A stretch of DNA of 64,000 bases from Lysobacterales bacterium (GTDB taxonomy: Bacteria > Pseudomonadota > Gammaproteobacteria > Xanthomonadales > SZUA-5). The notes under the pieces were generated by a model. The model did no database searches and was not told where the DNA came from. It saw only the letters and a list, made by a program, of their open reading frames with translations. Location of the stretch: NCBI GenBank assembly GCA_022844135.1, contig JALHMG010000001.1:31021-95020 (forward strand). The letters are read 5' to 3'. A program made the translations under genes and the position numbers. Below are positions 19,125 to 34,200 of the stretch, piece after piece. Position 1 is the stretch's first letter. Each line of letters begins with the position of its first letter.

Positions 19125-19322
19125 ATGGCCATCGTGCAGAACATCGCGGAGCGGCTGGAACAGGTGATGGAGGTGGTGCGCGAGCAGCACCTGGATGTAG
19201 AAACGGCGGCGCGGGAGTTTGGTTTCCCCTCGCTCGATGCGTTCTTTACGGCGTTCGACAAGCACTATGGCGTGCGCGTCGAAACCGTTTCGCTGAGCAG
19301 CGCCGATGGTGCGCAGCCATAG
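19125..19322 (+). CDS. 65-aa protein resembling a single AraC C-terminal HTH (copy 1)
   Basis: AGGGG RBS; DVETAAREFGFPSLDAFFTAFDKHYG matches the AraC second-HTH pattern. Confidence 0.6.
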   Translation: MAIVQNIAERLEQVMEVVREQHLDVETAAREFGFPSLDAFFTAFDKHYGVRVETVSLSSADGAQP

Positions 19323-19553
19323 CGTTTGCGGAAGACCTGAGAGAAGTAGGACAGGTTGTCGAACCCGCTGGCGTAAGCGACCTCAGACACGCTGCCGCGG
19401 CGCTCGCGGAGCAGCGCCTCGGCGCGCTGCAGGCGATGTTCGCGCAGGATTTCGCTGGGAGTTGCCTCAAGCGTTTGCTTGCAGCGGCGGAACAGGGTAG
19501 CGCGGTCCATGTGCAGCGCATGAGCCAGTTCGGCAACGCCGAAGGTTGGATCA
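19265..19553 (-). pseudogene. Duplicated 3' fragment (AraC domain only) of the hybrid sensor gene at 34350-38273
   Basis: Encodes the same C-terminus (…DPTFGVAELAHALHMDRATLFRR…TVSTRTP*) but is truncated at 19553, where the island begins. Confidence 0.9.
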
Positions 19554-19566
19554 TGAGGCAGTAGTT

Positions 19567-20142
19567 TTAGAGGTCATGATCAAGCTTTGCGCATATTGCA
19601 TGCAAAGCAATTAGGTGAGCCTCTTGGATAAAAGCCGTCCGATGTGATGATGCGACGAAGGTCACATCGCATAGACTGGGGAAGGACGTCTCATTATCGC
19701 CAGTAAACCCGAGGCGAGAAAGCCCGAGATCTCGCGCGGTTTCCAACGCACAGAGTACGTTGCGGGACTTCCCGGACGTCGAGAAGGCAAGCAGCAGGTC
19801 GCCAGGTCGAGCAAAGGTCGAGATCGAGCGAGCGAAGATTTGGTCAAAGCCAAAGTCATTCGACAATGCGGTCAATGCCACTCCGTCGGATCCAAGCGCA
19901 ATTGCTCGAAAGCCCGGCCGCGACGATTCAAATCGAACCGAAATTTCCGCCGCAAAATGCTGGGCCATGGCAAACGATCCGCCGTTTCCGCAGGTGAACA
20001 CCGTGCCTTGAGCTTGGATTGTCCTCTTAATAAGTGCACTCATTCGTACAAGGACGGGTGATGCGTTCAATAGGGTTCGACTTGATTCAACGCTTTGGCT
20101 TAGGTACTTATCAATAACTGAATCCACGACTATCTCCATCAT
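19567..20142 (-). CDS. gmhA: Phosphoheptose isomerase (SIS domain)
   Basis: CGNGGS..MAQHFAAE, SNDFGFDQIFAR, FSTSGKSRNV, IQEAH…H.IC. ATGA overlap with gmhB. Confidence 0.92.
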   Translation of the reverse strand: MMEIVVDSVIDKYLSQSVESSRTLLNASPVLVRMSALIKRTIQAQGTVFTCGNGGSFAMAQHFAAEISVRFESSRPGFRAIALGSDGVALTALSNDFGFDQIFARSISTFARPGDLLLAFSTSGKSRNVLCALETARDLGLSRLGFTGDNETSFPSLCDVTFVASSHRTAFIQEAHLIALHAICAKLDHDL

Positions 20143-20678
20143 ATTATCCCCGCTCTTGTCGAAAATATTGCTCGTCCGATAACATCGGATAAGTCGCTGC
20201 CTGGTGTGTACAAATACGAACCTATGCCTGCCGCAGTTCCCGCTGCGAGGTCGCAAGGCTTATCCCCCACGACAAAGCATTTCGAACGAACCACGAGGTC
20301 TGTCGGACAATGCCGTAAAATCATCCCAGGATTGGGTTTCCGGTCAGGGTGATTGGCAGATCGATATCGCAAGACCGAAGCATCAGGGTGGTAAGGACAG
20401 TACTCAAATCCGTGGATTACGGCTCCTTCGGAGAGCGCCAAACTGGCTAACGCCTGATGGAATGATTGAACTTCCAATTCTGAGCAGAAACCTCGTGCGA
20501 CAGCGGATTGATTACTTACCACAACGATACGCCATCCCTCTTGGTTGAGTCGCTGCAACGCTGCCAATGCTCCGGGCTGCCACTCAATGCGACTGGCGTC
20601 AAAACGGTACACCTGATCCACGATAAGTGTTCCGTCGCGGTCGAGAAACGCGACTGGCTGGGCGAACATGGGCGTCAT
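20139..20678 (-). CDS. gmhB: Heptose-1,7-bisphosphate phosphatase (HAD-IIIA)
   Basis: FLDRDGTL, VVSNQSAVARG, CPYHP, RKPNPGM, VGDKPCD..AG.AAG. Confidence 0.92.
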   Translation of the reverse strand: MTPMFAQPVAFLDRDGTLIVDQVYRFDASRIEWQPGALAALQRLNQEGWRIVVVSNQSAVARGFCSELEVQSFHQALASLALSEGAVIHGFEYCPYHPDASVLRYRSANHPDRKPNPGMILRHCPTDLVVRSKCFVVGDKPCDLAAGTAAGIGSYLYTPGSDLSDVIGRAIFSTRAGII

Positions 20679-20727
20679 TTGTTTTCGTAACTCTTCGAAC
20701 GCCAGTGGGCTTCTGTACCTATCATAC

Positions 20728-20952
20728 TGCTTTTCGCTGAGTTCCTTGGACCCGATGAATTGTGAGGAAACCATTGAGGAAGATGCCAAAGCGAAGCGAG
20801 TTGCCCGCGTCGAAGCGGGTCGAGGTGGCATTGGCGCTGTTGCGCAAGGAAGAGCCAGCGGCGCAGATAGCATGCTGGCACGGAATCAGCGAGCAGACGT
20901 CGTATCGCTGGAAGGACGAGTTAGTTGCTGGCGGCAATGCACGTATGGCCTG
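20728..20952 (+). mobile_element. Truncated, diverged IS3-family left end with partial orfA
   Basis: IRL TGCTTTTCGCTGAGTTCCTTGGACCCG (4 mismatches in 27 vs the neighbouring IS). orfA from 20783 (MPKRSELPASKRVEVALALLRKEEP…) breaks off after ~55 codons. Confidence 0.85.
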
Positions 20953-21012
20953 TGTCTTGCGCTGAGTCCCTTGGACCCGATGGAGTGTTAGTAAACCATC
21001 GAGGACAGGAAG

Positions 21013-21315
21013 ATGCCAAAGCAAAGCGAGTTGCCCGCGTCGAAGCGGGTCGAGGCGGTATTGGCGCTGTTGCGCAAGGAGGAGCCGGCGGTGCAGATTG
21101 CACGGCGCTACGAGATCAGCGAGCAAACGTTGTACCGGTGGAAGGACGAATTCATTGCCGGCGGTAGTGCGCGCATTGAGGGCAAGGATGGCGATTCGTC
21201 GCAGGCTAAAGAGGTAGGCCGCTTGCAGCGCGAGATCGAGACGCGCGAGCAGGTGATCGGTGAGCTGACGATCGCGAACCGCATCCCAAAAAAGCTCTCG
21301 GGCCCGTCCGTCTGA
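21013..21315 (+). CDS. IS3 transposase OrfA (HTH)
   Basis: VQIARRYEISEQTLYRWKDEF HTH, leucine-zipper-like tail, in-frame A AAA AAG heptamer. Confidence 0.9.
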   Translation: MPKQSELPASKRVEAVLALLRKEEPAVQIARRYEISEQTLYRWKDEFIAGGSARIEGKDGDSSQAKEVGRLQREIETREQVIGELTIANRIPKKLSGPSV

Positions 21316-22336
21316 CGCCGGAAGTGCGGGCCATGCTGGTTGAGGAGCAAAAGCAGGCGGCCAAGAAGGAGTCGGCAACGGCGCCACGCTGGAAAGCGGT
21401 GCTGCGAGCCGTGGGTATTCGATTGCCAATGCAATCGGACTTGCGCCGTCGAGCCGGTACCACAAGCCGCCGGAGACGACCAAGCGGCCTCGGCCAGCGC
21501 CCAAGCCCTTGGATGAGGCGCAGCGAGCGAAGGTGATCGAGTTCGCCGAGCGCTATCCGTGGTGGGGCTACAAACGCGTCGCCATCGTCATGCGGCGCGC
21601 TGGGATCGAGGTGAGCAAGAAGTTCGTGCGCGCGGTGTACAAGGCCGAGGGCTTGATGCAGAAGCGGCGGCCGAGCAAAGCGGAGCTGTATCAGAGCGCC
21701 AAGTTGTACGAGCTGCTGCCGACGCGCTGCAATGCGCTGTGGCAAGCGGACGTCACCTACATCCATATTCCCGGCCACGGCTGGTGGTACGCGGTGACGG
21801 TGATCGACTACTACAGCCGCTATCTGCTGGCCTGCCATCTGACCAGCAGCTTCTCGGCAGTCGAGGTCGGCGCCGGGATCGATTTGGCAATGAAGGAAGC
21901 CGAGCGCGTGCATGGGAAACTTGAGCGCATACCGTTCTTAGTGACCGACAATGGCAGCAGTTTTCTGGCGCGTCGATTCCAGGCGCAGATCAAAGACCGT
22001 TTCAAGCACGTCCGGACGCGCTACCGGACGCCCGAGCAGCTTGGGTTATTGGAGCGTTTTCATCAGACGCTCAAGCGCGAAGAGGTGTATTGGCAGCTCT
22101 ACGACAACCCGCAGGATGCACGAACCAAGCTAGATGCATTCCGCCAGCGATACAACGACATCCGGCCGCACTGGGCGCTGCAGCCGGCCATCGGGGGCGA
22201 CGTTGTGACGCCCGCCGACGTCTATGTTCGCAACGAAGCTATCGTGTTGCCGAAGTGGCAAGGATGGGCAAAGGCGGCAAAGAAAAAGCTTGACGATGCC
22301 ATGGCGCAGGATGCGCAGTTGAGGCAAGCCGCGTGA
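21288..22336 (+). pseudogene. IS3 transposase OrfB (DDE integrase core) with an extra frameshift near 21411-21437
   Basis: The -1 frame after the slippery site stops at 21536. The DDE part (WQADVTY…TVIDYYSR…TDNGSSF…LERFHQTLKRE) is in a third frame, entered at ~21437 (GLAPSSRYH). Confidence 0.8.
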
Positions 22337-22419
22337 ACCGGTGCGGTCTCACAAAAACCGGTTGGGCGGGTCCAAGGGAATTGGGAGGCAAGACATCAGG
22401 TCGGTTCCAAGCGCGGTGG

Positions 22420-22545
22420 TCACCGACACGGGCAGCGCGTTGATCGAGACTTTGTTCGGCAGAGCTGTGGCGAGAGGAGTGTCGTTGGCAAATCGCTCAG
22501 GACGACGTTTGAAAGCGACATCCAGAGCCGCCGCGCATGTTGACG
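22420..22545 (-). pseudogene. C-terminal remnant of another IS3-type transposase
   Basis: AAALDVAFKRRPERFANDTPLATALPNKVSIN resembles the recalled 'LDAAYAAHPERF…P.LP..VWIN' tail of some IS3-family transposases. Confidence 0.6.
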
Positions 22546-22695
22546 GCGATGGCAATATCAAACGCAGACTGCCAATGAACGCCTGCCTAAGGTCGGCGCC
22601 GGGAGGGTCACGGGAGCGAAGTAAGCGATGACTCTGTATAAGACGGGTTGCCCTGATTAACGTCAGTTACAATGGCTGCTTAAGGGAACCTTCAG

Positions 22696-23631
22696 TTGGA
22701 GCGAGCGAGGATTTGCGTGACATCTTTTCGGAGCAAGCCTTTTTTCGTTGTAGGTGATGTCATGTTGGACAGATTCGTTCATGGACAGGTGACGCGCCTG
22801 TCGCCCGAGGCGCCCGTCCCCGTCCTTACGGTCTCGGGGCACGAGGATGTTCCAGGTGGAAGTGCAAACGTTGCCGTCAACTGCCGCGCGCTGGGACGAG
22901 AAGTGAGGCTCTTCGGATTGGTAGGACAGGATGCAGAGGCCACAATTCTCACTGATGCCCTAGAGTCCAAAGGTATAAGAACGCGGCTCTTTCCAACCGC
23001 AGCACCGACCATCTTAAAAACCCGACTGATTGATGGAAGAAGGCACTTGTTTCGCTTTGATCTTGAGCAGCGCTTTGTTCCTGGCGATGCTGCTGCGCTT
23101 GCTCGGGCTGTCTTCGCTGAATTAAATGAGGCAGGCGCCGTGCTCCTGTCGGACTATGCCAAAGGAACCTTGGCTGAGCCGCAAGCATATATTCGCGCTG
23201 CCCGAAGCGCGGGATTGCGAATATGCGTTGATCCCAAACATGTGCCGTTTGATAGGTATTTCGGGGCACACGTTTTGACCCCCAATGCCATTGAGTTCGA
23301 AGCCGCGACAGGCACAATAGTGGGTGGTTCCGGCTTTAATGATATCGCAGCCGCTCTATGCGCATCGCTCTCTCTTGAGGCACTGCTTGTTAAAGCGGGC
23401 AATCGAGGTATGTACCTGATTCAACCATACAAGCCGGTTCGACACATCGAGGCGCGCCCGGTCGTCGCAGTCGACGTGACCGGTGCGGGTGATGTAGTCC
23501 TCGCGGTCCTGTCGGATGGCTTGGCACGCGGACTGAGCTACGAAGACGCCGCTGTGCGCGCAAATTCAGCAGGTGCCATATCGGTAACGCGCAGAGGAAC
23601 TGGGGTGGTGGCAAATCATGAACTTGACTAG
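22696..23631 (+). CDS. hldE: D-glycero-manno-heptose-7-phosphate kinase (HldE/RfaE domain I, PfkB fold)
   Basis: VGDVMLDRF..G…RLSPEAPVPV, PGGSANVA, TILKTR, SDYAKG, DPK, TPN..EF, DVTGAGD. TTG start uncertain. Confidence 0.92.
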   Translation: MERARICVTSFRSKPFFVVGDVMLDRFVHGQVTRLSPEAPVPVLTVSGHEDVPGGSANVAVNCRALGREVRLFGLVGQDAEATILTDALESKGIRTRLFPTAAPTILKTRLIDGRRHLFRFDLEQRFVPGDAAALARAVFAELNEAGAVLLSDYAKGTLAEPQAYIRAARSAGLRICVDPKHVPFDRYFGAHVLTPNAIEFEAATGTIVGGSGFNDIAAALCASLSLEALLVKAGNRGMYLIQPYKPVRHIEARPVVAVDVTGAGDVVLAVLSDGLARGLSYEDAAVRANSAGAISVTRRGTGVVANHELD

Positions 23632-24148
23632 CGCCGAAATCTTGCGAAACAAAGCTTTTAACGAGATTGAGATTGCCAGAAAAGCTGGAAAGCGGGTCGT
23701 CTTCACCAACGGTTGCTTCGATCTTTTGCACCCCGGTCATGTGAGAAACCTACAAGAAGCACGCTCGCTAGGCGACTGCTTGGTCGTCGGCTTAAATACT
23801 GACGAGTCCGTTGCTCGATTAAAGGGCAGTAATCGCCCTATTCTGCCCCTCAACGCCCGAATTGAGATCCTCTCCGCGCTTTCCTGCGTGAACTGGGTAA
23901 TACCTTTTGGCGATCAAGCTGACGACACGCCCAAGAAATTGATCAGCGAAATAATGCCACATGTTCTCGCGAAAGGTGGGGATTATGAGATGACAGAGAT
24001 TGTGGGCGCCGACACCGTGACTGCAGGCGGCGGTGAAGTAGTTCGTCTAACGTACCATCACGATTGGTCCACGACCAGCTTAATTCGCGCGATCAAATCC
24101 GGGAGCGCTATTCGGCGCGTTCTTCACCCAGCGGATTACGAGAGCTAA
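23618..24148 (+). CDS. hldE: Heptose-1-phosphate adenylyltransferase (HldE/RfaE domain II)
   Basis: VFTNGCFDLLHPGHV, VVGLNTDESVARLKG..RP, KGGDY, STT. Confidence 0.92.
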   Translation: MNLTSAEILRNKAFNEIEIARKAGKRVVFTNGCFDLLHPGHVRNLQEARSLGDCLVVGLNTDESVARLKGSNRPILPLNARIEILSALSCVNWVIPFGDQADDTPKKLISEIMPHVLAKGGDYEMTEIVGADTVTAGGGEVVRLTYHHDWSTTSLIRAIKSGSAIRRVLHPADYES

Positions 24149-25139
24149 TAATGCGATTCAGAGGGTAATACAATTTTCGTGTCGGATATCCTTCCTTATC
24201 CACACACTTGGCACAAAGCGGAATACCACTTAGCGAATGGCTCGCGTGCGCACCCCTGAATCGGCGCAAATTCTCGCTATTCCAAATTTCACGCAAAGAC
24301 TGGTTATTTACGTTTCCGAGTACTTGTTTGCCGTCATAATCGAAGCAACAGGGTACGACACGCCCATCCCACAGCACAGTTAAGGATGTCCACGGTTTGT
24401 CGCAAACAAAATCAGGCGGCTGAATCTCATGAACCCGCAGCGATTTTATCCGTTCGTTTGTATTATCCCACGCTACATAACGCTTGACCTTCACTCTGTC
24501 AATGCCTGGCCAATTCTTCCACTTACGCAACCAATCATTCACTTCGTGGCGGTTCTCTCCCTGCTCAACGATTTGTAGGATGACTCGAGGCCGGGATCTA
24601 CCCGCCTCGGCCTTGTAATCCAGGAGCTTCCTCAACCTTGATTCGGCTAATTCGAGATTGCCGGCGGCACGCCCGCGCACTCGCTCATTGGTCGCCGCCG
24701 TCACGCCATCGAGAGAAAGAACTAGCTCTTCGAGTCCGCTATCTACCAAAGAAGCAATCCGATGATCAGTAAGGAGTATCGGATTAGCGGATAGAAATCC
24801 CTTGACCCCAGACTGGGAAGCATAATTCAGGATTCTTGCGATATCCGGATGAAGCAAGCTGTCTCCGAAATGATGAAGCAGGACGGATCGAGTCGAATAT
24901 CGAGCTTCGTCGATGATCTTCTTGAAGACATCGAATTCCATGAATCCCAATGGTCGCGTCATCTGATTGGTGCGGGGGCACATCTCGCAAGTCATTGGGC
25001 AGTGATTTGTCAACTCGATCTGGAAGACTACTGGGTAACCTCCAGGCTCGATGCGCTGCCAGTTGTAATAGAACTGAAGAACCTCCGCGTTCACCCATTT
25101 GGCGAACGTGTCAAAGAATCGCGCATCCACTAGTCCCAC
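24108..25139 (-). CDS. Radical SAM enzyme with SPASM/twitch domain
   Basis: ELTNHCPMTCEMCPR (CxxxCxxC); CDKPW…WDGRVVPCCFD…LGN…W…CAKC. Confidence 0.92.
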   Translation of the reverse strand: MGLVDARFFDTFAKWVNAEVLQFYYNWQRIEPGGYPVVFQIELTNHCPMTCEMCPRTNQMTRPLGFMEFDVFKKIIDEARYSTRSVLLHHFGDSLLHPDIARILNYASQSGVKGFLSANPILLTDHRIASLVDSGLEELVLSLDGVTAATNERVRGRAAGNLELAESRLRKLLDYKAEAGRSRPRVILQIVEQGENRHEVNDWLRKWKNWPGIDRVKVKRYVAWDNTNERIKSLRVHEIQPPDFVCDKPWTSLTVLWDGRVVPCCFDYDGKQVLGNVNNQSLREIWNSENLRRFRGAHASHSLSGIPLCAKCVDKEGYPTRKLYYPLNRIISSRNPLGEERAE

Positions 25140-25993
25140 TCCCCCTCTGCGTTCCTCAGCAGATTACCACCGACGCCAGCAATAGAGCACGAAACCAGCG
25201 TAAGGCGCTTAGCCTCGTACATCGCTACGGTTGCTGCGACACCAGCATTTAGAGATTCAAGTCCCAGGTGGCCTCCCGGAATACTTACTAGTTCGCTGCA
25301 GTGCTTTCGTGTCCTTTGTCGCAAACCTTCCCCCTCGGCTCCAATGACAAATGCCAGCTTCTCATGGGATACAAGATCCGGAAGTATTCTGCTGCCTCTC
25401 TCATCCAGCCCGACCACATGGTATCCGATGTCCCGAAGTGTCTCGATGGCTAATACAAGATTAGCAACGCAGTAAAATTCAATTAACTCGGCGCCGCCGA
25501 CGGCGTACCTGACTACTTCTGCAGTAGGTGTCGCCGCTCGATGTCGCATATATATTATCGCATCAAATCCGAAAAAGGCCGCTGATCGAATTATTGTTGC
25601 CAAATTCTGAGGGTTCGAAACCTGATCCAGCAACAGGACTGATTTTGCGTTAACAAGATCTTGCAAGTCCCTCTCAACGCCTATAATCCGCGGATTGGCA
25701 AAGCAGAAGATGCCTTGGTGGTTGTCTTCGCCAACGAGTTGTCCAGCCCTCCTGAACTCTGGCCATGAAAGAAAAGCCACAGGTATATTGTGCCGCTGAG
25801 CAAGGGAAATCGCTTCTTGATGGTAGTCGGGCTTGCCCGCGAGCACGAGCTTTAGGACGTCGCCAGGACGCATCATCAGAGCGGCACGAACCGAATGCTT
25901 ACCATAAATTTTTTCTTTTCCACTACGTTCCGAATCGGTATCGGCCCCAGGCACGGAGTTCGCGTCGGTTCGCGGCTGAAACTGCTTGCGCAT
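25130..25993 (-). CDS. TrmH/SpoU-family RNA 2'-O-methyltransferase, RlmB-like
   Basis: IYGKHSV, LDQVSNPQNLATIIRSA, IGAEGEGLRQRTRKHCSELVSIP, ESLNAGVA. Confidence 0.88.
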   Translation of the reverse strand: MRKQFQPRTDANSVPGADTDSERSGKEKIYGKHSVRAALMMRPGDVLKLVLAGKPDYHQEAISLAQRHNIPVAFLSWPEFRRAGQLVGEDNHQGIFCFANPRIIGVERDLQDLVNAKSVLLLDQVSNPQNLATIIRSAAFFGFDAIIYMRHRAATPTAEVVRYAVGGAELIEFYCVANLVLAIETLRDIGYHVVGLDERGSRILPDLVSHEKLAFVIGAEGEGLRQRTRKHCSELVSIPGGHLGLESLNAGVAATVAMYEAKRLTLVSCSIAGVGGNLLRNAEGEWD

Positions 25994-26191
25994 GACTGTA
26001 TGCTTCTCAAAGTTTGCACTACGATGCCGAAAAGGACGAGCCGCCAAAGCGGTGAGAATTTCTCTTCTAACGTTCGTCGGGTGAACTGCTTAGCCTACTG
26101 CAACATCCGCATCGCCGCAAGGGCTGGATGCGAGTTGAGCAGACTAGGCCAAGAGAAATCCCTCCGATAATGTATCTCGACGTTTTCAACA

Positions 26192-27565
26192 TTGCAAGAG
26201 GACTCAATTGAAGTTATCGTTCTGGAACATTGTGCCAGCCCCAGGGTTGTGACGGTTATGGATAGGAAGGAATGTCAAGCATTGTGGGAGCGCTGCCAGA
26301 CGGAAAAATCAAAGATGTTTGCCGAGAATGGCAGCGAGAAGTTCTCACAGATCAGGGCAGCCAAGGTCTGGAATTATTGGGCTCTTTCAATGGTGAGCGA
26401 GCGCAAATCCCTTGAGCGTCAGGGGCGGTTTTTCGGGCGCATGCGCTGGCTTTGGGAAAGCCAAGCTCGTGTCGACTTCAGTGATTCGGTTTTCAGGCGG
26501 GCTTTGCGTGACCGAGCTCGAAGTGACCGTCCGCATTCCGAACGGAAATTTTCGCTGGCATCGTCGGGGGAGGCCATTGATTTCCGTTGGTTCGTTTTCC
26601 CTGGTTTAGTTGATTTTTCAAGATGCGCTTTCGATTCCTGGGTTTGGTTTGGAGCGACCAGATTCTGCGGACGCACCGAATTCCGCGATTGCAATTTCGC
26701 GGATTGGGTAGGATTTCTTAGTAGTCAAGCACAAGAATCACCTTGCGAGTTCCATGATATTTGCCGGTTCGATGGCTGCACCTTTTCTGATGATACCTAC
26801 TTCAGAAGTGCTGTTTTTCACGGTTTAGTATATTTCAGCGGCTGCGACTTCGCGGGAAAGGCGGATATGTCCCTCGCTCAATTCAACAAAGGCGCGAGTT
26901 TTTTCGGAGCGCGGTTTAATCAGGGAGTTATCTTAAATGGCGTCGCTTTTCGGCGAGTTCCGGACTTCTCCTTTGCGACTTTTAGTGTCGCACCATCAAT
27001 TCCGAAGAAGGTTGTGATGGAAGGTCTTGGAAAGCCGATCAATTACGTGAGAGAGAAGGAGGGCATGCAGCCCGTTCTAGAGGAATGTTACCGTGCGCTT
27101 AGAAGGATTGCCTCGGACAGCCGTGATTGGGGGGCGGAGCGCGATTACCTTGTGCTGGAACAGGAGTCCCGGGCTGATGCGTCGTTGACTTTTCGGGTTT
27201 TGCTTCGCTGCTTCGCACTAGGTTGCGATTACGGACGAAGTGCGGTTCGTCCATTGTGTTTTTGGTTCATAAATGCATTAGTGTTCTCGGGAGTATACGA
27301 GGCTATGCGGTATTCGATTGGGTCATTCACCTGGCGTGGTTTTTTCCGTGAGAGTTTTTACATCGCCGTTTGCCGGAACTTTCCGGTTCTCGGGCAAGCA
27401 AATTCACGCGCTTATGATACGGCAGTAACCGGTCTCCTGGGGAGCTCGGATGTTCGAATGGCATGGTTTGATTTCCTTGTAGTTCTGCAGAGCACGCTCG
27501 CTGCGATATTTTTGTTCTTGGTTGCTATGTGTATTCGAAACGCACTGCGCTATGACAGCGAATAG
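26192..27565 (+). CDS. Pentapeptide-repeat protein with C-terminal membrane helices (start uncertain; ATG at 26258 possible)
   Basis: Repeated F-x4-F pattern (VDFSRCAF…FGATRF…FRDCNF…FDGCTF…FRSAVF…FSGCDF…); DYGRSAVRP followed by hydrophobic segments. Confidence 0.75.
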   Translation: MQEDSIEVIVLEHCASPRVVTVMDRKECQALWERCQTEKSKMFAENGSEKFSQIRAAKVWNYWALSMVSERKSLERQGRFFGRMRWLWESQARVDFSDSVFRRALRDRARSDRPHSERKFSLASSGEAIDFRWFVFPGLVDFSRCAFDSWVWFGATRFCGRTEFRDCNFADWVGFLSSQAQESPCEFHDICRFDGCTFSDDTYFRSAVFHGLVYFSGCDFAGKADMSLAQFNKGASFFGARFNQGVILNGVAFRRVPDFSFATFSVAPSIPKKVVMEGLGKPINYVREKEGMQPVLEECYRALRRIASDSRDWGAERDYLVLEQESRADASLTFRVLLRCFALGCDYGRSAVRPLCFWFINALVFSGVYEAMRYSIGSFTWRGFFRESFYIAVCRNFPVLGQANSRAYDTAVTGLLGSSDVRMAWFDFLVVLQSTLAAIFLFLVAMCIRNALRYDSE

Positions 27566-27592
27566 CACGATCTCGGCGAAGAACAGCTGATA

Positions 27593-28525
27593 CTAAAGGG
27601 ATTCGAGAAAGCGCAGGAGATTCGGCATGTGTTCGCCCCAGGCAATGACACTGGGATCATGCCGCACGCACGGTTTGGCACTAGCTTCGGCCAGTGCGCC
27701 AATGAAGGCAATTGTGTCCTCTGGCGTCGTGACCACATTCGGTAGGCCGAGAATGTGGCTGTGTTGGAGTTTGTTTACAACAACCATTTGAGTGCCTGAG
27801 GCATATTGATCAGATACCACTCCGCTGGCATAGGGCGACGATGGTGCGGCGGTCCAACACCAAAGCAGATCGCATGCTCGAAGGCGGTCAAAACGGTCTC
27901 GATTGCTCCATTGCGAGTACGCAAGATGAAGTCGACTGGGATATAAGGCTGCTATCGAGGCTAATTCTTCGAGCACGCCCGGGGAGGGTTGCTTCCATGG
28001 GCTCAAGACTAGGTAGATTGCGACGGCGGGGATCTGATGGAGGATTGCCTCACTGATTCTCGGGTATTCGCGTTCATATCTGAGAAACCCGTTCGTTCCA
28101 ATTAGAAATCTGTCCAAGGGTAATCCAAACTGGGTGCGTAATCTCCTTCGCGTCGTGTTTTCCGAAAAAGTCTCTGACGGATGAGGGAACCAATGACCGC
28201 GCTTTGCGCCTTCAATGAGCGAGGGTACCATAGCCACTATCGCAGCAACGGAGTCGTAAAGCGCCCTCGCATCATCGGAGTGTGGCATTAGTACAACGGG
28301 TTGCCGACAATCCATAATAAAATCATGTGCACTGTTTATTGGTAATACTTCCCCATGGTAATGAAGAAAAACGATATCGGCGCGGTCGGCGCGGAGTTCT
28401 GCACTACATTTCACTTTCGCACCAGCGCGGCGAAGTGCTGTCGCCATTCGTTTAGAGAAATAACCGATGCCACAACGATCATTTAGAGTGGTAGCGATCT
28501 GGAGTATGTGTAGGGGACGACGCAT
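27593..28525 (-). CDS. Glycosyltransferase-like protein (GT-B/GT4-like)
   Basis: N-terminal HILQI…CGIGYF…A.ALR and central IGTNGFLRYER. Last gene of the six-gene operon. Confidence 0.6.
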   Translation of the reverse strand: MRRPLHILQIATTLNDRCGIGYFSKRMATALRRAGAKVKCSAELRADRADIVFLHYHGEVLPINSAHDFIMDCRQPVVLMPHSDDARALYDSVAAIVAMVPSLIEGAKRGHWFPHPSETFSENTTRRRLRTQFGLPLDRFLIGTNGFLRYEREYPRISEAILHQIPAVAIYLVLSPWKQPSPGVLEELASIAALYPSRLHLAYSQWSNRDRFDRLRACDLLWCWTAAPSSPYASGVVSDQYASGTQMVVVNKLQHSHILGLPNVVTTPEDTIAFIGALAEASAKPCVRHDPSVIAWGEHMPNLLRFLESL

Positions 28526-28540
28526 GGGAATGGTGAATAG

Positions 28541-29353
28541 TTACGTTTCGTTGAAGGGATTGCATGGTCTGCCTTTTGCGTCGCGGACTGTCAGTTCGTG
28601 AGCAATCGGCGTAACACTAACTTCACGACGCCTCCAAAAAACGTCCAGGTCCGATCCACTGGCGATCTGGTCGGAAGTGTAGTTGGAGGCGAATGTGTAA
28701 CGATCGGAACTTGTTTTCGCGCTGCTGTTTTTCAACTGGAGACGATAAGGGTCCAGTCGACTTTGTTCGCACAAGCGCCATTCTGTACGCATTTCAACGC
28801 AGCTTGGAATGTTGATGTTGAGGCATGACACGTTTGGATTTAATCCCCTTAAGGCCAACCGCGCCAATTGGGAGGTCACTGTCATCGCGGGCTTCCAAAC
28901 CTCAGGATCAAAGGTCTTGCCGAAGTGCGAGTCATCTTCTTCCATGCTTACTGCCATACTAGGCACTCCGTGGCTGCCTGCCTGGGCGGCCGCTGCTATA
29001 GTTCCGCTTAAGTGTACGGTGTACCCAAGGTTCTCGCCGGCGTTTATCCCACTTATACATAGATCTGGTGGCTTCGAAACAAGTTCCAGAAGTGCAATGC
29101 TAATAACTTGCGATGGGGCTCCGGCGATGGTGTAACCTTTAACCATCCCTTCTGATAGATGAAAATTGTGGGGCGAAACATTGCCGATGTCGGGTCCGCG
29201 AAGGAAGGCGCGTGACATGCATGTCTGATTAACACGTGGGCAAACAACCAACACCTCGCCAAGTGTTTGAGCTACTTCAATCGCGGCGCGAAGGCCAAAC
29301 GAATCTGGACCGTCGTCGTTGGTTACGAGGATGTAGGGTGGTCTAGTTGACAT
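28541..29353 (-). CDS. surE: SurE-family 5'/3'-nucleotidase
   Basis: ILVTNDDG, SGINAGENLG…SGTIAAA, NINIP, VSVTPI. Confidence 0.9.
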   Translation of the reverse strand: MSTRPPYILVTNDDGPDSFGLRAAIEVAQTLGEVLVVCPRVNQTCMSRAFLRGPDIGNVSPHNFHLSEGMVKGYTIAGAPSQVISIALLELVSKPPDLCISGINAGENLGYTVHLSGTIAAAAQAGSHGVPSMAVSMEEDDSHFGKTFDPEVWKPAMTVTSQLARLALRGLNPNVSCLNINIPSCVEMRTEWRLCEQSRLDPYRLQLKNSSAKTSSDRYTFASNYTSDQIASGSDLDVFWRRREVSVTPIAHELTVRDAKGRPCNPFNET

Positions 29354-30353
29354 GATTCGCGTTCTGGTTTTGGGATGTGGCTTTAGCGAATGCGTTAACG
29401 ACGTCCTTGGTCGTGATCGCTTCTAAGCCTGGATCGATGGTCTCGCCGTATGGGTTGTGTTCTTGTCCTTTCCAGATCGTGATGTGTTCGGTGCAGGTTT
29501 TAGGTGGCCCCCAACAACCGGGCGAGACAGGACCGAACAGTGTCACCGCGCTCGTTCGGGTTGCCGTTGCTAAGTGCGCGACACCACTGTCAACAGACAG
29601 AACGAGTCCAGCGGCGGCGACGCGATGAAGCAAGTCGCAAGCCGTCGTATTGAGTGAAACGCTGGTAACGTCGACTCCCGCTTGGTTGGCAATCGTGAGA
29701 GCACGATCTCGCTCCCGCAGCGTGCCTGTTAGCTGCAACTTCCATCCCATGGCCTGGACTTTTCTTGCCACCTCCGTCCAACGATCTTGCGGCCAAAGGC
29801 GAGCCGGGCTTCCGGCGCCAGCGTGCAGAATTACGGGTGCATTTCTGTCCAGAGGACGCGGAGTACGCAGAAAGAGGTCGTTGGCGTCGAGATCGATACC
29901 CAAAAGGCCAAGCAGGCGAGCCCATCGGGAGAAAATGTGATCGGCAAAATCAAGGAACGGAGCACTTGATGTTTCGGGTATCGCGGGGTGACGGTAGCTC
30001 AATATTTGACTCGGTCGGAGTGCTCGGAGCAAGGGCAACAGCTCATGACCGGGAGTCCTTAGGGAAACGATTAGCTCAACCCTTTCTTTCAGCTCCAATA
30101 CGGAAGCCAGTACATTTGAATCAGCGGCTCGGTGATCTGTGGGACCAATTGTGTCTGGATTCGAGCGATCGGAGAGGATTAAGTCGCACAGATTCAAATA
30201 TCCAGCAAGATCCTTGAGCCACGACGGGCACGTCATTATTATCTTCTGGGTTGGGTAGGTTCGACGCAAAGCGCGCATTGCGGGAATCCCCGTCATCAGG
30301 TCGCCGAGCCCATTGTGTCGTAAAACCAAGATAGCGCCCTTTCGGCCCATCAT
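29343..30353 (-). CDS. Glycosyltransferase family 9 (heptosyltransferase-like)
   Basis: LVLRHNGLGDLMTGIPAMRALRR, LHAGAG…RLWP..RW, VDSGVAHLA.A…TLFGP. Confidence 0.88.
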   Translation of the reverse strand: MMGRKGAILVLRHNGLGDLMTGIPAMRALRRTYPTQKIIMTCPSWLKDLAGYLNLCDLILSDRSNPDTIGPTDHRAADSNVLASVLELKERVELIVSLRTPGHELLPLLRALRPSQILSYRHPAIPETSSAPFLDFADHIFSRWARLLGLLGIDLDANDLFLRTPRPLDRNAPVILHAGAGSPARLWPQDRWTEVARKVQAMGWKLQLTGTLRERDRALTIANQAGVDVTSVSLNTTACDLLHRVAAAGLVLSVDSGVAHLATATRTSAVTLFGPVSPGCWGPPKTCTEHITIWKGQEHNPYGETIDPGLEAITTKDVVNAFAKATSQNQNANHVN

Positions 30354-30354
30354 G

Positions 30355-31473
30355 CTAGTCACTCAGCCTCGATTTGTAGGGCGCCAAACATGCTTGGCGA
30401 ATGATTTGTGCAACCTGATGGGCTCCTCGGCCAGAGTTATGACTGACAGTCCTGCGCACGTGTCCAGCCATTTGTAACGGGGATAGTCCAGAGCGTAAAG
30501 ACTCCGTTATTTCGGCCCGCTTGGCAGGATCCTTGCGAGCCTCCGCCAAAGCGCTGTAGATTGCATTCACTACCTTTTCCTCACCTGCAGGTCGTAACGC
30601 TTCTATCATTCCGGTCGACAGCACGCTATCCGGCCAATTGAGTGCGGAGCACTCGGGATCCACAAACAGGCGCGTATTTAGGATCTGACTCAGATTTTGT
30701 GGCGGCAACAAGATGGACGGCAAGCCTATTTGCATTGCTTGGAAGATAGTCGTGCTGCCCGGTGAGGTGAGTAGAAGGTCACAAGTCCTTAGCAACTGCT
30801 CAAAGACATGACCGCTCTGCACACCGACGACAACGTCATTTCCGAAGCGCTGCCGTATATTGCTTAACCAGTCGGACCCGATGTTGCCGCATACGCCAGC
30901 GATGGAAACCGAAGCCGCCTCAAGCGCGCCAAGCACGCCAGGCAAGACAAGATCGACATAGTCCAGAGTTCCACAAAGGTGGCTATGCACACCTCCCACG
31001 TTCACTACAACTCCGGCGCCGCCTGTGCGACGCCTCGGCTGCGGAACGATAGGCTCCACCCAACAAAAGTCGCGTCTATTTCGAAGGCACGAGGCTAGTG
31101 GCAAAATCTCGTCCGGGTATCGCTGTGCGCAATAACATACCGTGGCGTTAGGCAACGGGACCTCATTTCCATTAGCCCACAGGTACGGCAAACTATCAAC
31201 ATAAACAACAGGTATTCCAAGCGATCCGAGGTAATTCGCTCGTTCTGGGTCGTTAATCACGAGCGCCGCGTTCGCGTCAGCAAGGGGCGCATCAACAAAC
31301 TCGTGATTGAAGTCGTCGAGCGCTAGTATTTGTGTCGACATCGGCGGCGGTTCATGAAGTATGATCCGGTGCGGTGGGAGGTGCTTGAGAATTAAGCGAA
31401 GTTTGCCCAGACTGCCCCAGCCGAAGTGACAAGCAGAAACTACCAGCATCGCGCTGTTGCGTGTTGAACCCAT
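30355..31473 (-). CDS. blsD: Cytosylglucuronate (CGA) synthase-like glycosyltransferase (BlsD/MilC-like)
   Basis: N-terminal FGWGSLGKL motif as recalled for CGA synthases; YVDSLPYLW, VVNVGG, SPGSTT, LPPQNLSQ. Operonic with the BlsE-like gene and an aminotransferase. Confidence 0.65.
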   Translation of the reverse strand: MGSTRNSAMLVVSACHFGWGSLGKLRLILKHLPPHRIILHEPPPMSTQILALDDFNHEFVDAPLADANAALVINDPERANYLGSLGIPVVYVDSLPYLWANGNEVPLPNATVCYCAQRYPDEILPLASCLRNRRDFCWVEPIVPQPRRRTGGAGVVVNVGGVHSHLCGTLDYVDLVLPGVLGALEAASVSIAGVCGNIGSDWLSNIRQRFGNDVVVGVQSGHVFEQLLRTCDLLLTSPGSTTIFQAMQIGLPSILLPPQNLSQILNTRLFVDPECSALNWPDSVLSTGMIEALRPAGEEKVVNAIYSALAEARKDPAKRAEITESLRSGLSPLQMAGHVRRTVSHNSGRGAHQVAQIIRQACLAPYKSRLSD

Positions 31474-31477
31474 GGAA

Positions 31478-32722
31478 TTAATCTCGTGTCCCGGCGAAGT
31501 GTCGCCACACCTTCAGTGTTCCTTCGCAGCTCATCTCGGCCTCTTGCATCGGAAGCCAGGGCCCTGTTTCCAATTCAAAAAGCCGTGAGTGGGCGTCGCG
31601 CGCCACAGGACAATCATCTGCGGTCATCGCTGCCGAATTTTTGCGGAGATAACTGGTTAGCCAGTCTATTCGAAACAAAGGCCGATGCGGGATGCGGCAG
31701 CTTATATTTTCGGCGGAAATCGCCTTTACCAAATCGTCGCGTATTGATCGCGCGCCATCAGGGACAAGAACAGGGCATTTAAAGTAGACACTCTCGCCCC
31801 ATTCCGGTTCTTTGATCGTCAGAAGCCCATGACTCAAGAAAGATCGACCATAATACCGGCCGGCGTTCTGGCGATCCGAGATCTCTTCCGTCAGTCTGGA
31901 TAATCCATCCAGACCGATTATTGCTGGGAATTCTGCCATTCGGCAACTGAAACCTAATCTCTCATAGTCGTCCCAGTCGGGGCCTTTGCCGTAGTTAGAC
32001 AAAGTCCGTAATGTGTTGTAACGTGAATGGTCGGCGCAGATAACCATTCCGCCCTCACCACAAGAAATATGCTTTCGTACTGAAAATGCGAAAGCGGCGT
32101 AGTCGCCAAACGTGCCTACCCTGCGTCGTCGTACTGTGGCGCCAAACGCTTGCGCACAGTCTTCGATCAAAGTGAGGCCTTCGGTTGAGCACAACGTTGA
32201 AATACTGTCCATATCTGCAGGATAGCCCCAGAAATGAACCACCAAGACGGCTTTGGTGCGCGGACTAATTAGTTCGCGCGCCCGAGTCGCCGACATGGTT
32301 AACGATTGAGGTTCAACATCGCAGATCACGGGTATGGCGTTGTTTTGCACGATAGCGGAAGCTGCCGCTACGAAGCAAAACGCAGGTACAATCACCTCGT
32401 CCCCCGGGCCGATACCTGCCGCTGAGAGCGCTAAGCTCAGCGCTGACGTCCCAGAATTCACGGAGACCCCGCGGATGTCCGCTCCGAAAAATGCAGCGAA
32501 TTCGGTTTCGAATCTACGTGCCCATGGCCCTGAGTAATACAAGGACAGGAGACCAGAATCCATCATTTCAAGAACCCGGGCCCGAGCAGTCGTGGATATG
32601 CGGACTCCTGTGGGCAAAGGCAGCTGGCGAGTTGGCGTACCACCGAATATTGCCAGCGGATTCTGGTTTGTTTTGCGCATACCATTAGGCATTGGTGATT
32701 TCCGAAATTTCAATATTCCCAT
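31478..32722 (-). CDS. DegT/DnrJ/EryC1/StrS PLP aminotransferase (BlsH-like by context)
   Basis: NSGTSAL, PAFCF.A, VHFWG, IEDCAQAFG, FSVRKHISCGEGG (PLP lysine). Confidence 0.92.
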   Translation of the reverse strand: MGILKFRKSPMPNGMRKTNQNPLAIFGGTPTRQLPLPTGVRISTTARARVLEMMDSGLLSLYYSGPWARRFETEFAAFFGADIRGVSVNSGTSALSLALSAAGIGPGDEVIVPAFCFVAAASAIVQNNAIPVICDVEPQSLTMSATRARELISPRTKAVLVVHFWGYPADMDSISTLCSTEGLTLIEDCAQAFGATVRRRRVGTFGDYAAFAFSVRKHISCGEGGMVICADHSRYNTLRTLSNYGKGPDWDDYERLGFSCRMAEFPAIIGLDGLSRLTEEISDRQNAGRYYGRSFLSHGLLTIKEPEWGESVYFKCPVLVPDGARSIRDDLVKAISAENISCRIPHRPLFRIDWLTSYLRKNSAAMTADDCPVARDAHSRLFELETGPWLPMQEAEMSCEGTLKVWRHFAGTRD

Positions 32723-33684
32723 GGGTCAACATTTCCCACATCATCAATCCGATTGCTGTAGGCGGCCGCTGTCGTGGAACAGCCTTTGCAGGTTCGATGT
32801 CCGTCGGTACGGTAATAGCGAACATGCTCATTCCATTCTGAATTGGTCAGCGACCACGTGTCATCGTTCTGGACGACAGCGCCGTCGGTTGCGTCTTCAC
32901 CAGTTCGATGCGGAAGCAAACTGCAGCCAAAAGCCTTTTTGATTTTTGGGTCTATATATATAACATTCCCGACGACATTACAGAGGCTGCCGGTGGGTTT
33001 CGGACATACTCCAGCGTCGAAGAACAAATCCTGGGCTGAGCGGCTCTCGCCGTAAAAGCGCAGACCCATTGGAACCAAGAGGCCTGGCTCAGTGTGATAA
33101 AGGCGGTCGCACGAATCAATCACAGCTTGCCGATCAGGATAGACGATTGGGCGGTCAAGCTTTAACGCGGTTAGCTCCCATTGATTGATTCCCACATCGG
33201 TGAAGAGTTTTTGTAATTCGAGCATATCTTGATAGTTGTGAGGTCCAACCACAGTATTTACTCGCGTGCGGATGCCTAGTTCTTTAGCCTTGCTGATCCC
33301 GTCGATACAACGGTCGAATAGGCCCGGAAATCCTCTTATTTTGTCGTGATTATCCCGTGTGCCGTCAATGCTGACAACGATCTGATCCAGGCCGCTGGCG
33401 GATAGTTCTGAAATTTTGGTTGGTAAGGAAGCTCCGTTTGTAATTATGGAGCTCTTCAATTCGAATTGCTTTATAATCCTCACGAATTCTGAGATTTCCA
33501 GGTGCAAAAGTGGCTCTCCACCTGTCAGACGAACGTACTCGACCCCAACTCCTTTGGCCTTGTCTAGTATCGCGAACAAATCACTCTTACTAAATCTATA
33601 TTGATCCTTGGAGCGAGCAAAGACGCACATGAAGCAATCTGCGTTACATGCCTCCAGGATTCGTATGAACAAGTACTTTTTCAT
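32710..33684 (-). CDS. blsE: Radical SAM cytosylglucuronate dehydratase/decarboxylase (BlsE/MilG-like)
   Basis: YLFIRILEACNADCFMC.FA.S.D.YRF and YVRLTGGEPL.H match recalled BlsE N-termini closely; C-terminal Cys for an auxiliary cluster. Confidence 0.78.
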   Translation of the reverse strand: MKKYLFIRILEACNADCFMCVFARSKDQYRFSKSDLFAILDKAKGVGVEYVRLTGGEPLLHLEISEFVRIIKQFELKSSIITNGASLPTKISELSASGLDQIVVSIDGTRDNHDKIRGFPGLFDRCIDGISKAKELGIRTRVNTVVGPHNYQDMLELQKLFTDVGINQWELTALKLDRPIVYPDRQAVIDSCDRLYHTEPGLLVPMGLRFYGESRSAQDLFFDAGVCPKPTGSLCNVVGNVIYIDPKIKKAFGCSLLPHRTGEDATDGAVVQNDDTWSLTNSEWNEHVRYYRTDGHRTCKGCSTTAAAYSNRIDDVGNVDPWEY

Positions 33685-34200
33685 TATTTCCCGACTTCTG
33701 AGCATTGGTGTAGTTGGCAAATTGCTAATCGACTTGCTCAGATGATCTGAAAGGCTGAGCGATGTTTCTTCGTTTCCATGGTCTGATCGAGTTCTGGCGA
33801 GAGCTTGCGTTGCGATTCGCGCTTACGCTTAGATGAGCACTTGAGCTGCACCGAATGCTCGCTCAATCGGAAGCGTTTTCGCTATCTGGGAATTCTCGCA
33901 AATTCTGACTTTGGCTTTCTGCTTAGCTGACCGGCGCCGTCCTGGGGTTGAGACCTCAATGGAGGCCACTTTCTACGCTGGGCATCGGTCAGTTGCACTT
34001 GGCTAGGTGCGGGGGATGTCTGGTACGAGTCGTGTCTGGCGCGCATCGATGTGCCGAGCTTCTTGTTCTACCTGCGATCCACTGATGCGACGCAGTGCTG
34101 TTATCGTCGTTGGGAACGTCTTCGACCGCGTTGCAAAAACTGAAGATTGGCAACCAACGCCGTATTGCGCGCGCGACAATTCGTCAGTGGTGGTTCGGAA

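Follow-up and report, generated by a model that had tools for sequence, protein, structure and literature searches.

Hexopyranosyl-cytosine nucleosides such as blasticidin S, mildiomycin and gougerotin are classic ribosome inhibitors. To our knowledge, the pathways described for them are essentially those of actinomycetes and all include a peptidyl arm. The clusters for blasticidin S (bls), mildiomycin (mil) and arginomycin are built around the same three enzymes, i.e. a cytosylglucuronate (CGA) synthase, a radical S-adenosylmethionine (SAM) enzyme of the BlsE type and an aminotransferase of the DegT family. BlsM and MilB release free cytosine from cytidine monophosphate (CMP), and BlsD and MilC couple it to uridine diphosphate (UDP)-glucuronate (bioRxiv 10.64898/2026.02.25.707955; PMC3715490); BlsE and MilG then carry out a radical 3'-dehydration/4'-oxidation, and a DegT-type enzyme aminates C4' (bioRxiv 10.64898/2026.02.25.707955; PMC3715490; Lee et al. 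2022 via PMC10267522). BlsE itself works on CGA as a 1,2-diol dehydratase (Lee et al. 2022, cited in PMC10267522), and the logic of MilC/MilG/MilD is summarised in bioRxiv 10.64898/2026.02.25.707955. Here we analysed a stretch of 64,000 nucleotides from a Lysobacterales bacterium (assembly GCA_022844135.1, contig JALHMG010000001.1, positions 31,021 to 95,020; hereafter the window, whose coordinates are used throughout), which contains an island of low guanine-plus-cytosine (GC) content at 19554-34200. It carries this core together with the genes for adenosine diphosphate (ADP)-heptose and further glycosyltransferases. Judged by its gene content, we put the probability at roughly 0.6 that the island is a cluster of an undescribed family distributed across phyla, whose product would be a glycosylated hexopyranosyl-cytosine nucleoside and which would bring its own ribosome-directed immunity.

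Searches against Pfam, NCBIfam and the Protein Data Bank (PDB), in which the domain searches covered the open reading frames (ORFs) of at least 80 amino acids (aa) in the island, identified every gene named in an earlier first-pass annotation of this stretch as an intact ORF. The core is encoded in an operon on the minus strand, running from 33687 to 27593, with the genes for the BlsE-type enzyme, the DegT aminotransferase, the CGA-synthase-like protein, a GT9 glycosyltransferase, SurE and a glycosyltransferase of the GT-B fold in this order; the second and third overlap or abut the BlsE gene. The BlsE-type radical SAM enzyme (32710-33687), of the cytosylglucuronate 3'-dehydratase/'decarboxylase' family, matches TIGR04466 over the whole model with 386.6 bits, slightly below the curated cut-off of 400, and aligns over its full length with crystallised BlsE (PDB 7VOB/7VOC; E=2e-103, 48% identity). 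Its CX3CX2C motif is present as CNADCFMC, and of the columns without variation in classical BlsE it retains 72%. The DegT/DnrJ/EryC1 pyridoxal-phosphate-dependent sugar aminotransferase (31478-32722; PF01041, 281.8 bits), whose gene overlaps that of the BlsE-type enzyme by 13 nt, has perosamine synthetase and glutamine:scyllo-inosose aminotransferases as its best PDB matches; it is 50-69% identical to its counterparts in the heptose-type loci described below and 25-33% identical to those of classical actinomycete loci. For the putative CGA-synthase-like glycosyltransferase (30355-31473), the best match is TIGR04467 (207.8 bits, E=3e-61; cut-off 300), and the corresponding identities are 38-65% and 28-35%. 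Of the Bls core claimed by the first-pass annotation, the BlsE-like enzyme and the adjacent DegT gene are there, but the DegT enzyme and the CGA-synthase-like protein, at 25-35% identity to their classical counterparts, form separate orthologous groups and are not simple orthologues of BlsH and BlsD.

The aglycone logic expected of the island is that of the bls and mil clusters, i.e. cytosine joined to a 4'-amino-deoxy-hexuronate. Those clusters, however, also encode an ATP-grasp ligase, an aminomutase and a transfer RNA (tRNA)-dependent transferase for a beta-arginine/leucine or arginine-derived arm, whereas no peptidyl-arm gene (BlsG aminomutase, BlsI ATP-grasp ligase, BlsK/BlsL, MilM etc.) was detected among the ORFs of the island, and no peptidyl-arm domain among the called genes of the related loci L088, L092, L173-L175 and L185-L187. 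Compared with bls and mil, the family adds instead the ADP-heptose pathway, the GT9 and GT-B enzymes, a BtrN-like radical SAM enzyme, SurE, an RNA methyltransferase of the SpoU family and a paralogue of elongation factor P (EF-P); and while bls and mil belong to actinomycetes, the heptose-type family extends over several phyla and is carried on mobile DNA.

In the lipopolysaccharide (LPS) pathway, GmhA, the HldE kinase, GmhB and the HldE adenylyltransferase lead to ADP-D-glycero-beta-D-manno-heptose, and all four activities (isomerase, 7-phosphate kinase, 7-phosphatase and adenylyltransferase) are encoded on the island according to the best NCBIfam matches. The gmhA-like gene for sedoheptulose-7-phosphate isomerase (~19567-20142, minus strand; TIGR00441, 152.8 bits; SIS_2; likely start MMEIVV) is overlapped at its start by the stop of the gmhB-like gene for an HAD-IIIA heptose-1,7-bisphosphate phosphatase (~20139-20678, minus strand; TIGR01656 97.9, PRK08942 95 and TIGR00213 85.8 bits; likely start MTPMFAQ). 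The two domains of HldE are separate genes on the plus strand: domain I, the heptose-7-phosphate kinase (22696-23631; TIGR02198, 282 bits; PfkB domain), is 61% identical to the product of the L088 gene, and domain II, the heptose-1-phosphate adenylyltransferase (23618-24148; TIGR02199), is 64% identical to its L088 counterpart and, with 182.5 bits against a cut-off of 181.5, is the only heptose protein above its equivalog cut-off. No epimerase-family ORF that could correspond to the HldD/RfaD 6-epimerase is present in the island; the rest of the genome was not searched for hldD. Nowhere else does the host have gmhA or either of the two hldE genes. Among 20 relatives of the host order, gmhA is absent and the HldE kinase model finds only weak PfkB matches of at most 63 bits, compared with 283 for the island gene. 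As neither the host outside the island nor these relatives possess gmhA or a genuine hldE, the heptose pathway belongs to the island and not to LPS synthesis. A tblastn search with the island GT9 had suggested that the host has no other GT9, but the Pfam profile search rejects this, as it finds a housekeeping GT9 at C13:6609-7331 (141 bits to PF01075), which also occurs in most relatives and presumably uses a donor other than ADP-heptose. The lineage thus possesses a GT9 without a native ADP-heptose route, and it is the island that brings the whole pathway. A route of this kind has reportedly been found inside antibiotic clusters before, Tang and colleagues being said to have traced in 2018 the path from sedoheptulose-7-phosphate to ADP-heptose for septacidin and hygromycin B. 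Those clusters resemble the island in having a dedicated ADP-heptose route, but build a purine N6-heptosamine or an aminocyclitol/destomic-acid scaffold and are not known to use a GT9 on a CGA-derived cytosine nucleoside.

The candidate for the transfer of the heptose is the GT9 protein (29343-30362, minus strand; PF01075, 70.2 bits against a cut-off of 22). Its PDB matches to WaaF/WaaC are limited to the C-terminal domain (residues 170-288), and no solved GT9 aligns with its N-terminal half, which is consistent with the protein probably being an ADP-heptose-dependent heptosyltransferase with a novel acceptor domain. Against the LPS-core equivalogs TIGR02193, TIGR02195 and TIGR02201 it scores 45-57 bits, with cut-offs of 135-185; its context is a nucleoside operon and not an LPS core, its family also occurs in Actinomycetota, and its gene adjoins the CGA synthase gene in 10 of the 10 related loci that have both on the contig. 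The 'second glycosyltransferase' of the first-pass annotation is a compact protein of 310 aa (27593-28525, minus strand) that matches no Pfam or NCBIfam family. An AlphaFold2 model based on a 57-sequence alignment reached a predicted local distance difference test score (pLDDT) of 97.4 and a predicted template-modelling score (pTM) of 0.93, after an earlier model from a 6-sequence alignment had been poor (pLDDT 64). Foldseek matched this model with probability 1.00, template-modelling (TM) scores of 0.66-0.76 and E values down to 6e-11 to SenB, the closest structural neighbour (TM 0.70-0.76), GlgM, MshA, BshA and TreT, mostly retaining GT4-type enzymes, all five of which glycosylate small molecules. 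Distant family members score weakly against Glyco_transf_4 and Glycos_transf_1, and a profile built from six orthologues retrieved 183 representative clusters among 1.84 billion proteins, 67 of them at E<=1e-30. As far as its predicted fold goes, the protein is a GT4-like glycosyltransferase of the GT-B type and a signature gene of the cluster family.

Between the genes for these two enzymes lies that for the SurE-family nucleotidase/phosphatase (28541-29353, minus strand; PF01975, 140 bits), which is 32% identical to the housekeeping SurE of the host on contig C3. In locus L187 (1065-2522), a single protein of 485 aa consists of a BlsM-like Nuc_deoxyrib_tr domain fused to SurE, and this fusion ties SurE to the step from nucleotide to base, i.e. 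to the supply of cytosine. Another long Nuc_deoxyrib_tr fusion, of 558 aa, is found at L175:15084-16760.

A second radical SAM enzyme (24108-25139, minus strand; PF04055 and PF13186) carries a SPASM/twitch auxiliary-cluster domain, with the motif CPMTCEMC and further Cys motifs towards its C terminus, and is 50-67% identical to its counterparts in the 11 related loci. Its best PDB match is the twitch domain of BtrN (1e-11), the 2-deoxy-scyllo-inosamine dehydrogenase of butirosin biosynthesis, which likewise combines a radical SAM domain with a twitch/SPASM cluster and is partnered there by a DegT-type aminotransferase that acts twice; the match of the island enzyme covers the auxiliary domain alone. 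The neighbouring gene encodes an RlmB-like RNA 2'-O-methyltransferase of the SpoU family (25130-25993, minus strand), a candidate immunity gene. It has the SpoU_methylase and SpoU_sub_bind architecture of RlmB, which forms Gm2251 in 23S ribosomal RNA (rRNA), and matches E. coli RlmB (PDB 1GZ0) at 3e-26, but scores 141.2 bits against the TIGR00186 cut-off of 160.15. The host's own RlmB-like genes, on contigs C26 and C13, are 30-37% identical to the island copy, which shares more residues (41-64%) with the copies in clusters from other phyla. Tsr and NshR are also SpoU-family enzymes encoded inside antibiotic clusters, although the island protein is very distant from them (36 bits).

Several related clusters also encode an EF-P paralogue (L088:7306-7869, L092:8293-8856, L173:6772-7329, L174:16996-17571 and L186:6126-6689), usually adjoining the SpoU gene. 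The tip loop, which in normal EF-P holds the modified Lys/Arg, reads TGKSG in three of these, the canonical PGKGQ in one and PGNLR in one. The two EF-P genes of the window host lie outside the island, on C5 and C6. Blasticidin S pairs with P-loop guanines at the ribosomal P site, one of which is methylated by RlmB, and EF-P acts on the end of the P-site tRNA. In the locus of Streptomyces sp. MMS24-I2-30, a resistance kinase of the APH(6)/hydroxyurea type (L177:10994-12055) takes the place of SpoU; the same locus contains a luciferase-like monooxygenase gene and, between this and the CGA synthase gene, an IS110 transposase. Taken together, the extra RlmB-like methyltransferase, the recurrent EF-P paralogues and the APH(6)-type kinase look like self-protection against a translation inhibitor, and we conjecture that the immunity is directed at the ribosome. 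The remaining gene of this part of the island encodes a pentapeptide-repeat membrane protein with hydrophobic C-terminal segments (26192-27565, plus strand; PF13576, 61.7 bits), 39% identical to its counterpart in L092. The first-pass annotation was silent on this protein, as it was on the insertion sequences of the island and the absence of a BlsM-type hydrolase; the other genes it listed, i.e. those for GT9, SurE, GmhA, GmhB, HldE, the second radical SAM enzyme and the RlmB-like methyltransferase, are all present and intact, with hldE as two genes.

The strongest indication that these genes belong together comes from their recurrence. A lack of co-occurrence of Bls-like and heptose genes elsewhere had been set beforehand as what would refute a joint pathway. 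This refutation fails, as the set was found in at least 11 other bacteria of five or more phyla, in loci with GC contents of 0.47-0.70; the carriers are Acidobacteriota, Gemmatimonadota, Desulfobacterota, Actinomycetota (one of them a cultured Streptomyces) and unassigned metagenome contigs. The closest BlsE homologues (61-62% identity) lie on two metagenome contigs, L088 and L092, which are collinear with the island. Their gene order is BlsM-like Nuc_deoxyrib_tr, BlsE, DegT, CGA synthase, GT9, SurE and the GT-B gene, followed by the pentapeptide protein (L092 only), the EF-P paralogue, SpoU, Methyltransf_21, SPASM, the hldE adenylyltransferase, the hldE kinase and gmhB; the proteins shared with the window are 54-69% identical nearly over their full length, with the exception of the pentapeptide protein. 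Nine further loci hold the gene set in varying order: L173, adjoining an integrase and a relaxase (L173:1-6541); L174, adjoining a serine recombinase and several transposases (L174:1-9053); L175, a heptose-type locus with a BlsM-like gene; L176, from a Mycobacteriaceae metagenome-assembled genome (MAG); L177 (= L065), from the cultured Streptomyces sp. MMS24-I2-30; L001 and L178, from one Vicinamibacterales MAG; L185, whose 1-Mb contig also carries gmhA, gmhB and a bifunctional hldE; L186, from a Desulfatitalea MAG, adjoining a Mu F-like head gene and a gene for a D12 DNA methyltransferase of 810 aa (L186:1-5853); and L187, from Gemmatimonadetes, with the SurE fusion described above. L185 also has a second radical SAM/SPASM gene.

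The genes for BlsE, DegT, CGA synthase, GT9 and the SPASM enzyme occur in 11 of 11 loci, the GT-B gene in ten, SpoU in nine, SurE and the BlsM-like gene in seven each and the EF-P paralogue in six (one a fragment), and the heptose genes gmhA/gmhB/hldE can be seen on all contigs of sufficient length. In L088 and L092 the BlsM-type gene immediately precedes BlsE, in L174 the two are neighbours on opposite strands, and in L175, L176, L177 and L187 it has another place in the cluster; none is within view in L173 and L185. By comparison, the classical actinomycete loci found with the same BlsE query, over 70 in number, have no GT9, GT-B, SPASM, SpoU, SurE or heptose genes within 10 kb. In a tree of 140 BlsE sequences, a branch with an approximate likelihood ratio support (SH-aLRT) of 100 separates the classical clade (101 sequences) from a group of 39, which comprises the window, eight of nine heptose-type loci and uncharacterised metagenomic sequences; the Streptomyces heptose-type locus is basal in the classical clade. 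The recurrence and the tree together argue for a real, old and mobile cluster family rather than a chance juxtaposition, and the differing borders of L173, L174 and L186 indicate repeated carriage on different mobile elements.

The island in the window is itself horizontally acquired, foreign and mobile. As the first-pass annotation had recognised, it is a low-GC island, and the interval proposed there is exactly that between two direct repeats: 14.6 kb with a GC content of ~52%, compared with ~63% across the window. Between 20 and 34 kb the GC content is 0.49-0.55, against 0.60-0.67 in the flanks, with a host insertion sequence at 21-22 kb as the sole outlier. The enclosing repeat is 438 bp long (19116-19553 = 34201-34638) with two mismatches, at 19146 and 19466. 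Its right copy is the genuine 3' end and downstream region of an intact gene for a hybrid sensor kinase/response regulator/AraC protein of 1307 aa (34350-38273, minus strand), and its left copy, detached from the gene, duplicates the final ~289 nt of it together with 149 nt downstream. At position 19466 the assembly has C, while metagenome contigs over the left repeat have T, the allele of the right repeat, so that the two mismatches may not be fixed differences but reflect variation in the population or choices made in the assembly. The BlsE-type gene is absent from 40 relatives of the host, from genus to order level, and no integrase gene lies within the island. A DNA search of the relatives recovered no informative empty site, the same-genus genome being just 66-74% identical, and the foreign origin therefore rests on GC content, the direct repeat and the absence from the 40 relatives.

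The host is a gammaproteobacterium, evidently known from a MAG (5.34 Mb, 75 contigs, 99.8% complete), whose RpoB segment is at most 74% identical to those of named genomes (Frateuria, Thermomonas). An activated-carbon metagenome is the only public run that contains the island, with contigs of low depth over the island and its flanks alike. A mis-assembly of the island was considered and rejected, given the similar low depth of island and flanks, the small contigs that cross the left junction (19125-19619) and the host-type insertion sequence inside.

The chemistry of the product, the sequence and acceptor sites of the reactions, the target and the immunity mechanism proposed in the following are inferred from this gene content. 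The CGA-synthase-like transferase would couple free cytosine to UDP-glucuronate, the cytosine being supplied by the BlsM-like CMP hydrolase in the relatives and by host metabolism in the window copy; cytosine can be obtained from host nucleotide nucleosidases. The BlsE-type enzyme would perform the 3'-dehydration/4'-oxidation and the DegT aminotransferase would install the 4'-amino group. GmhA, the HldE kinase, GmhB and the HldE adenylyltransferase would provide the ADP-heptose, without an epimerase, for GT9 to move the heptose onto the nucleoside, with no peptidyl arm, and the compact GT-B enzyme would attach a further sugar. The BtrN-like enzyme may oxidise a sugar hydroxyl, possibly ahead of a second transamination; since BtrN oxidises a secondary alcohol before such a step, an amino-heptose is a reasonable guess. 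SurE may be the phosphatase of the nucleotide-supply step or dephosphorylate an intermediate. The RlmB-like methyltransferase, joined by the EF-P paralogue in the relatives, would shield the P site and peptidyl-transferase centre of the producer, where blasticidin-type nucleosides bind.

The core is suggested to be glycosylated rather than acylated because no ligase, aminomutase or nonribosomal-peptide-synthetase-like gene is present, and the product is probably an amino-hexuronyl-cytosine translation inhibitor decorated with heptose and probably a hexose. The proposal of the first-pass annotation that heptose stands in for the peptidyl arm is favoured by the genomic evidence, i.e. the missing arm genes, the heptose pathway dedicated to the island and the occurrence of the family in Actinomycetota, which lack LPS; yet with a third glycosyltransferase and a BtrN-like oxidising enzyme at hand, heptose is unlikely to be the sole decoration. 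As the gene set recurs across phyla, the cluster probably makes a new glycosylated nucleoside antibiotic. Tentatively, this could be taken further to a mobile cassette of 'antibiotic plus ribosome immunity', in which cytosine, the 4'-amino-deoxy-hexuronate, heptose and a further sugar would form a pseudo-oligosaccharide replacing the peptidyl arm and represent a structurally new class of ribosome-directed nucleosides, and protection, by a mechanism likewise new, would have two parts, an RlmB-like 2'-O-methyltransferase acting on the P-loop/peptidyl-transferase region and a dedicated EF-P paralogue stabilising the end of the P-site tRNA against the drug.

Several observations weigh against a functional nucleoside cluster of this kind. 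A product is known for no member of the family. The CGA-synthase-like, GmhA, GmhB, HldE-kinase and RlmB-like proteins score below their NCBIfam equivalog cut-offs, the BlsE-type enzyme carries five clade-specific substitutions where classical BlsE is invariant, namely M61L, P141T, S226G, D240G and C257L as numbered in the window protein, and the substrates of the DegT aminotransferase and the CGA synthase may, given their sequence distance, differ from the classical ones. Housekeeping RlmB already methylates G2251, so that the additional RlmB-like enzyme may have another target. A Pfam search of the island ORFs found neither exporter nor regulator genes. The window copy lacks the BlsM-like gene that its nearest relatives carry: no Nuc_deoxyrib_tr-type CMP hydrolase was found by tblastn and profile search in 33688-34200, an AT-rich non-coding leader (GC 0.49) at the right end of the island where the relatives have this gene, or in the whole host genome. 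No remnant of EF-P or Methyltransf_21, both present in L088 and L092, occurs in the island, and the coverage of the host MAG is low.

Some of these observations bear on the copy in the window more than on the family, and raise the question of whether the copy is decaying or incomplete and no longer makes the final product, which would be compatible with every reading of the family and which we consider a minority view, though one to be reckoned with. It is supported by the lack of the BlsM-like, EF-P and Methyltransf_21 genes of L088/L092 and by the state of the promoter region of the heptose genes, between the divergent gmhB and hldE, which insertion sequences have split. This spacer is 47 bp long in L088, whereas the window has an IS3-family insertion sequence there (20952-22395, plus strand; orfA 21013-21315, orfB 21509-22336; rve, rve_3 and HTH_21 domains), and the cluster may consequently be poorly expressed or incomplete. 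The element has a host-like GC content of 0.62 and is a multi-copy insertion sequence of the host: its ends match several host contig ends at 94-95% and coincide with breaks of the assembly (C3, C14, C15, C48, C67, C69). Directly beside it, the remnant of a left end (20732-20946) has 83-85% identity with 20957-21176 and with copies at the ends of other host contigs, which indicates two successive insertions at the same spot. In addition, no sigma-70 consensus promoter was found in the leader (33688-34200) upstream of the BlsE gene. Decay is countered by the state of the genes, as all 13 that remain are full-length relative to L088/L092 and free of frameshifts and stops; moreover, neither BlsM nor EF-P is universal in the family, and nucleotide nucleosidases of the host can supply the cytosine.

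An unlikely alternative at the level of the family is that the same nucleoside chemistry serves a conflict module of mobile elements, i.e. an anti-phage defence or an addiction/competition cassette, acting within the cell or during infection instead of being secreted like a classical antibiotic. The integrase, relaxase, recombinase, transposase and Mu F-like genes and the D12 methyltransferase beside L173, L174 and L186 would suit such a module, as would the absence of an exporter from every locus seen, and BlsE-type enzymes share their radical SAM core with prokaryotic viperins (PADLOC pVip, 81 bits). That match, however, reflects generic radical SAM similarity far below the BlsE match (387 bits); PADLOC gives only radical-SAM-core pVip matches (81 and 37 bits) and none for eight other proteins, the island lies outside any recognisable defence island, and the signature genes were not found in the viral contigs of IMG/VR, the phages of INPHARED or the plasmids of PLSDB.

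Still less probable is a modification of macromolecules, in which the EF-P paralogue, another protein or rRNA would receive the sugars and no free nucleoside would be made. GT9-fold enzymes include protein heptosyltransferases, and EarP rhamnosylates EF-P; the clusters of the family repeatedly include an EF-P paralogue and an RNA methyltransferase, and a queuosine-salvage gene (Q_salvage, PF10343; L185:5231-6262) adjoins the cluster in L185, beside the GT-B gene. But the window and several of the loci have no EF-P paralogue, the tip loop of this protein varies, the structural neighbours of the GT-B enzyme act on small molecules, and BlsM-type cytosine supply, CGA synthase and BlsE typify pathways to free nucleosides. 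Finally, a surface-glycan island, whose GT9 and GT-B enzymes would place heptose and an amino-uronic sugar made by BlsE/DegT on LPS, O-antigen or capsule, is very improbable, and LPS heptosylation was rejected, since, even though GT9 enzymes classically heptosylate the LPS core and a polysaccharide locus of the host lies only ~6 kb away, the gene set occurs in a Streptomyces and a Mycobacteriaceae MAG, both without LPS, the island has no Wzx/Wzy, polyprenyl-phosphate transferase or lipid A/core genes, the host lineage has a housekeeping GT9 without an ADP-heptose pathway, glycan synthesis has no use for BlsM-like, SpoU and EF-P partners, and the position of the insertion is dictated by the sensor-kinase repeat and not by the polysaccharide locus.

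That locus (window 40691-59000) is of the ABC-transporter type and has the GC content of the host. It encodes a nucleoside diphosphate (NDP)-sugar dehydrogenase (42374-43645), epimerases/dehydratases, a methyltransferase, a GT4 glycosyltransferase, a DUF4143/AAA_14 ATPase (45492-46664) and a Wzt with a C-terminal domain (47655-48923). Its dehydrogenase is one of two NDP-sugar dehydrogenases of the host that are possible suppliers of UDP-glucuronate.

With regard to novelty, the first-pass annotation knew of no description of this gene combination, and no match for it was found in the searchable literature: no paper was found to connect genes of CGA-type nucleosides to heptose, GT9, SpoU or EF-P, a nucleoside antibiotic to a heptosyltransferase, or EF-P to blasticidin resistance, nor was one on hikizimycin biosynthesis found there. 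Hikizimycin and gougerotin, in which cytosine is N-linked to a 4-amino sugar with further sugar or acyl groups, are peptidyl-transferase inhibitors and among the closest known systems. Neither is known to be linked to heptose or GT9, and both (hikizimycin with a C11 sugar and kanosamine, gougerotin with a peptide) are Streptomyces products, unlike the cross-phylum family. CGA-derived cytosine nucleosides are known, but a glycosylating, mobile family of this kind, distributed across phyla and with its own ADP-heptose supply and putative immunity, is not.

The preferred reading, that of a glycosylated nucleoside with ribosome-directed immunity, would mean that the classical clusters have a sister family in dozens of lineages, accounting for 39 of the 140 sampled BlsE sequences, which swaps the peptidyl arm for ADP-heptose-based glycosylation and moves among Proteobacteria, Acidobacteriota, Gemmatimonadota, Desulfobacterota and Actinomycetota. 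As a cultured bacterium, Streptomyces sp. MMS24-I2-30, carries a member, the hypothesis is directly testable. The family would be a source of a new scaffold for antibiotics and of a GT9 enzyme that glycosylates a small molecule, and its SpoU methyltransferase and EF-P paralogue may constitute a new resistance pair, which could already circulate on mobile DNA.

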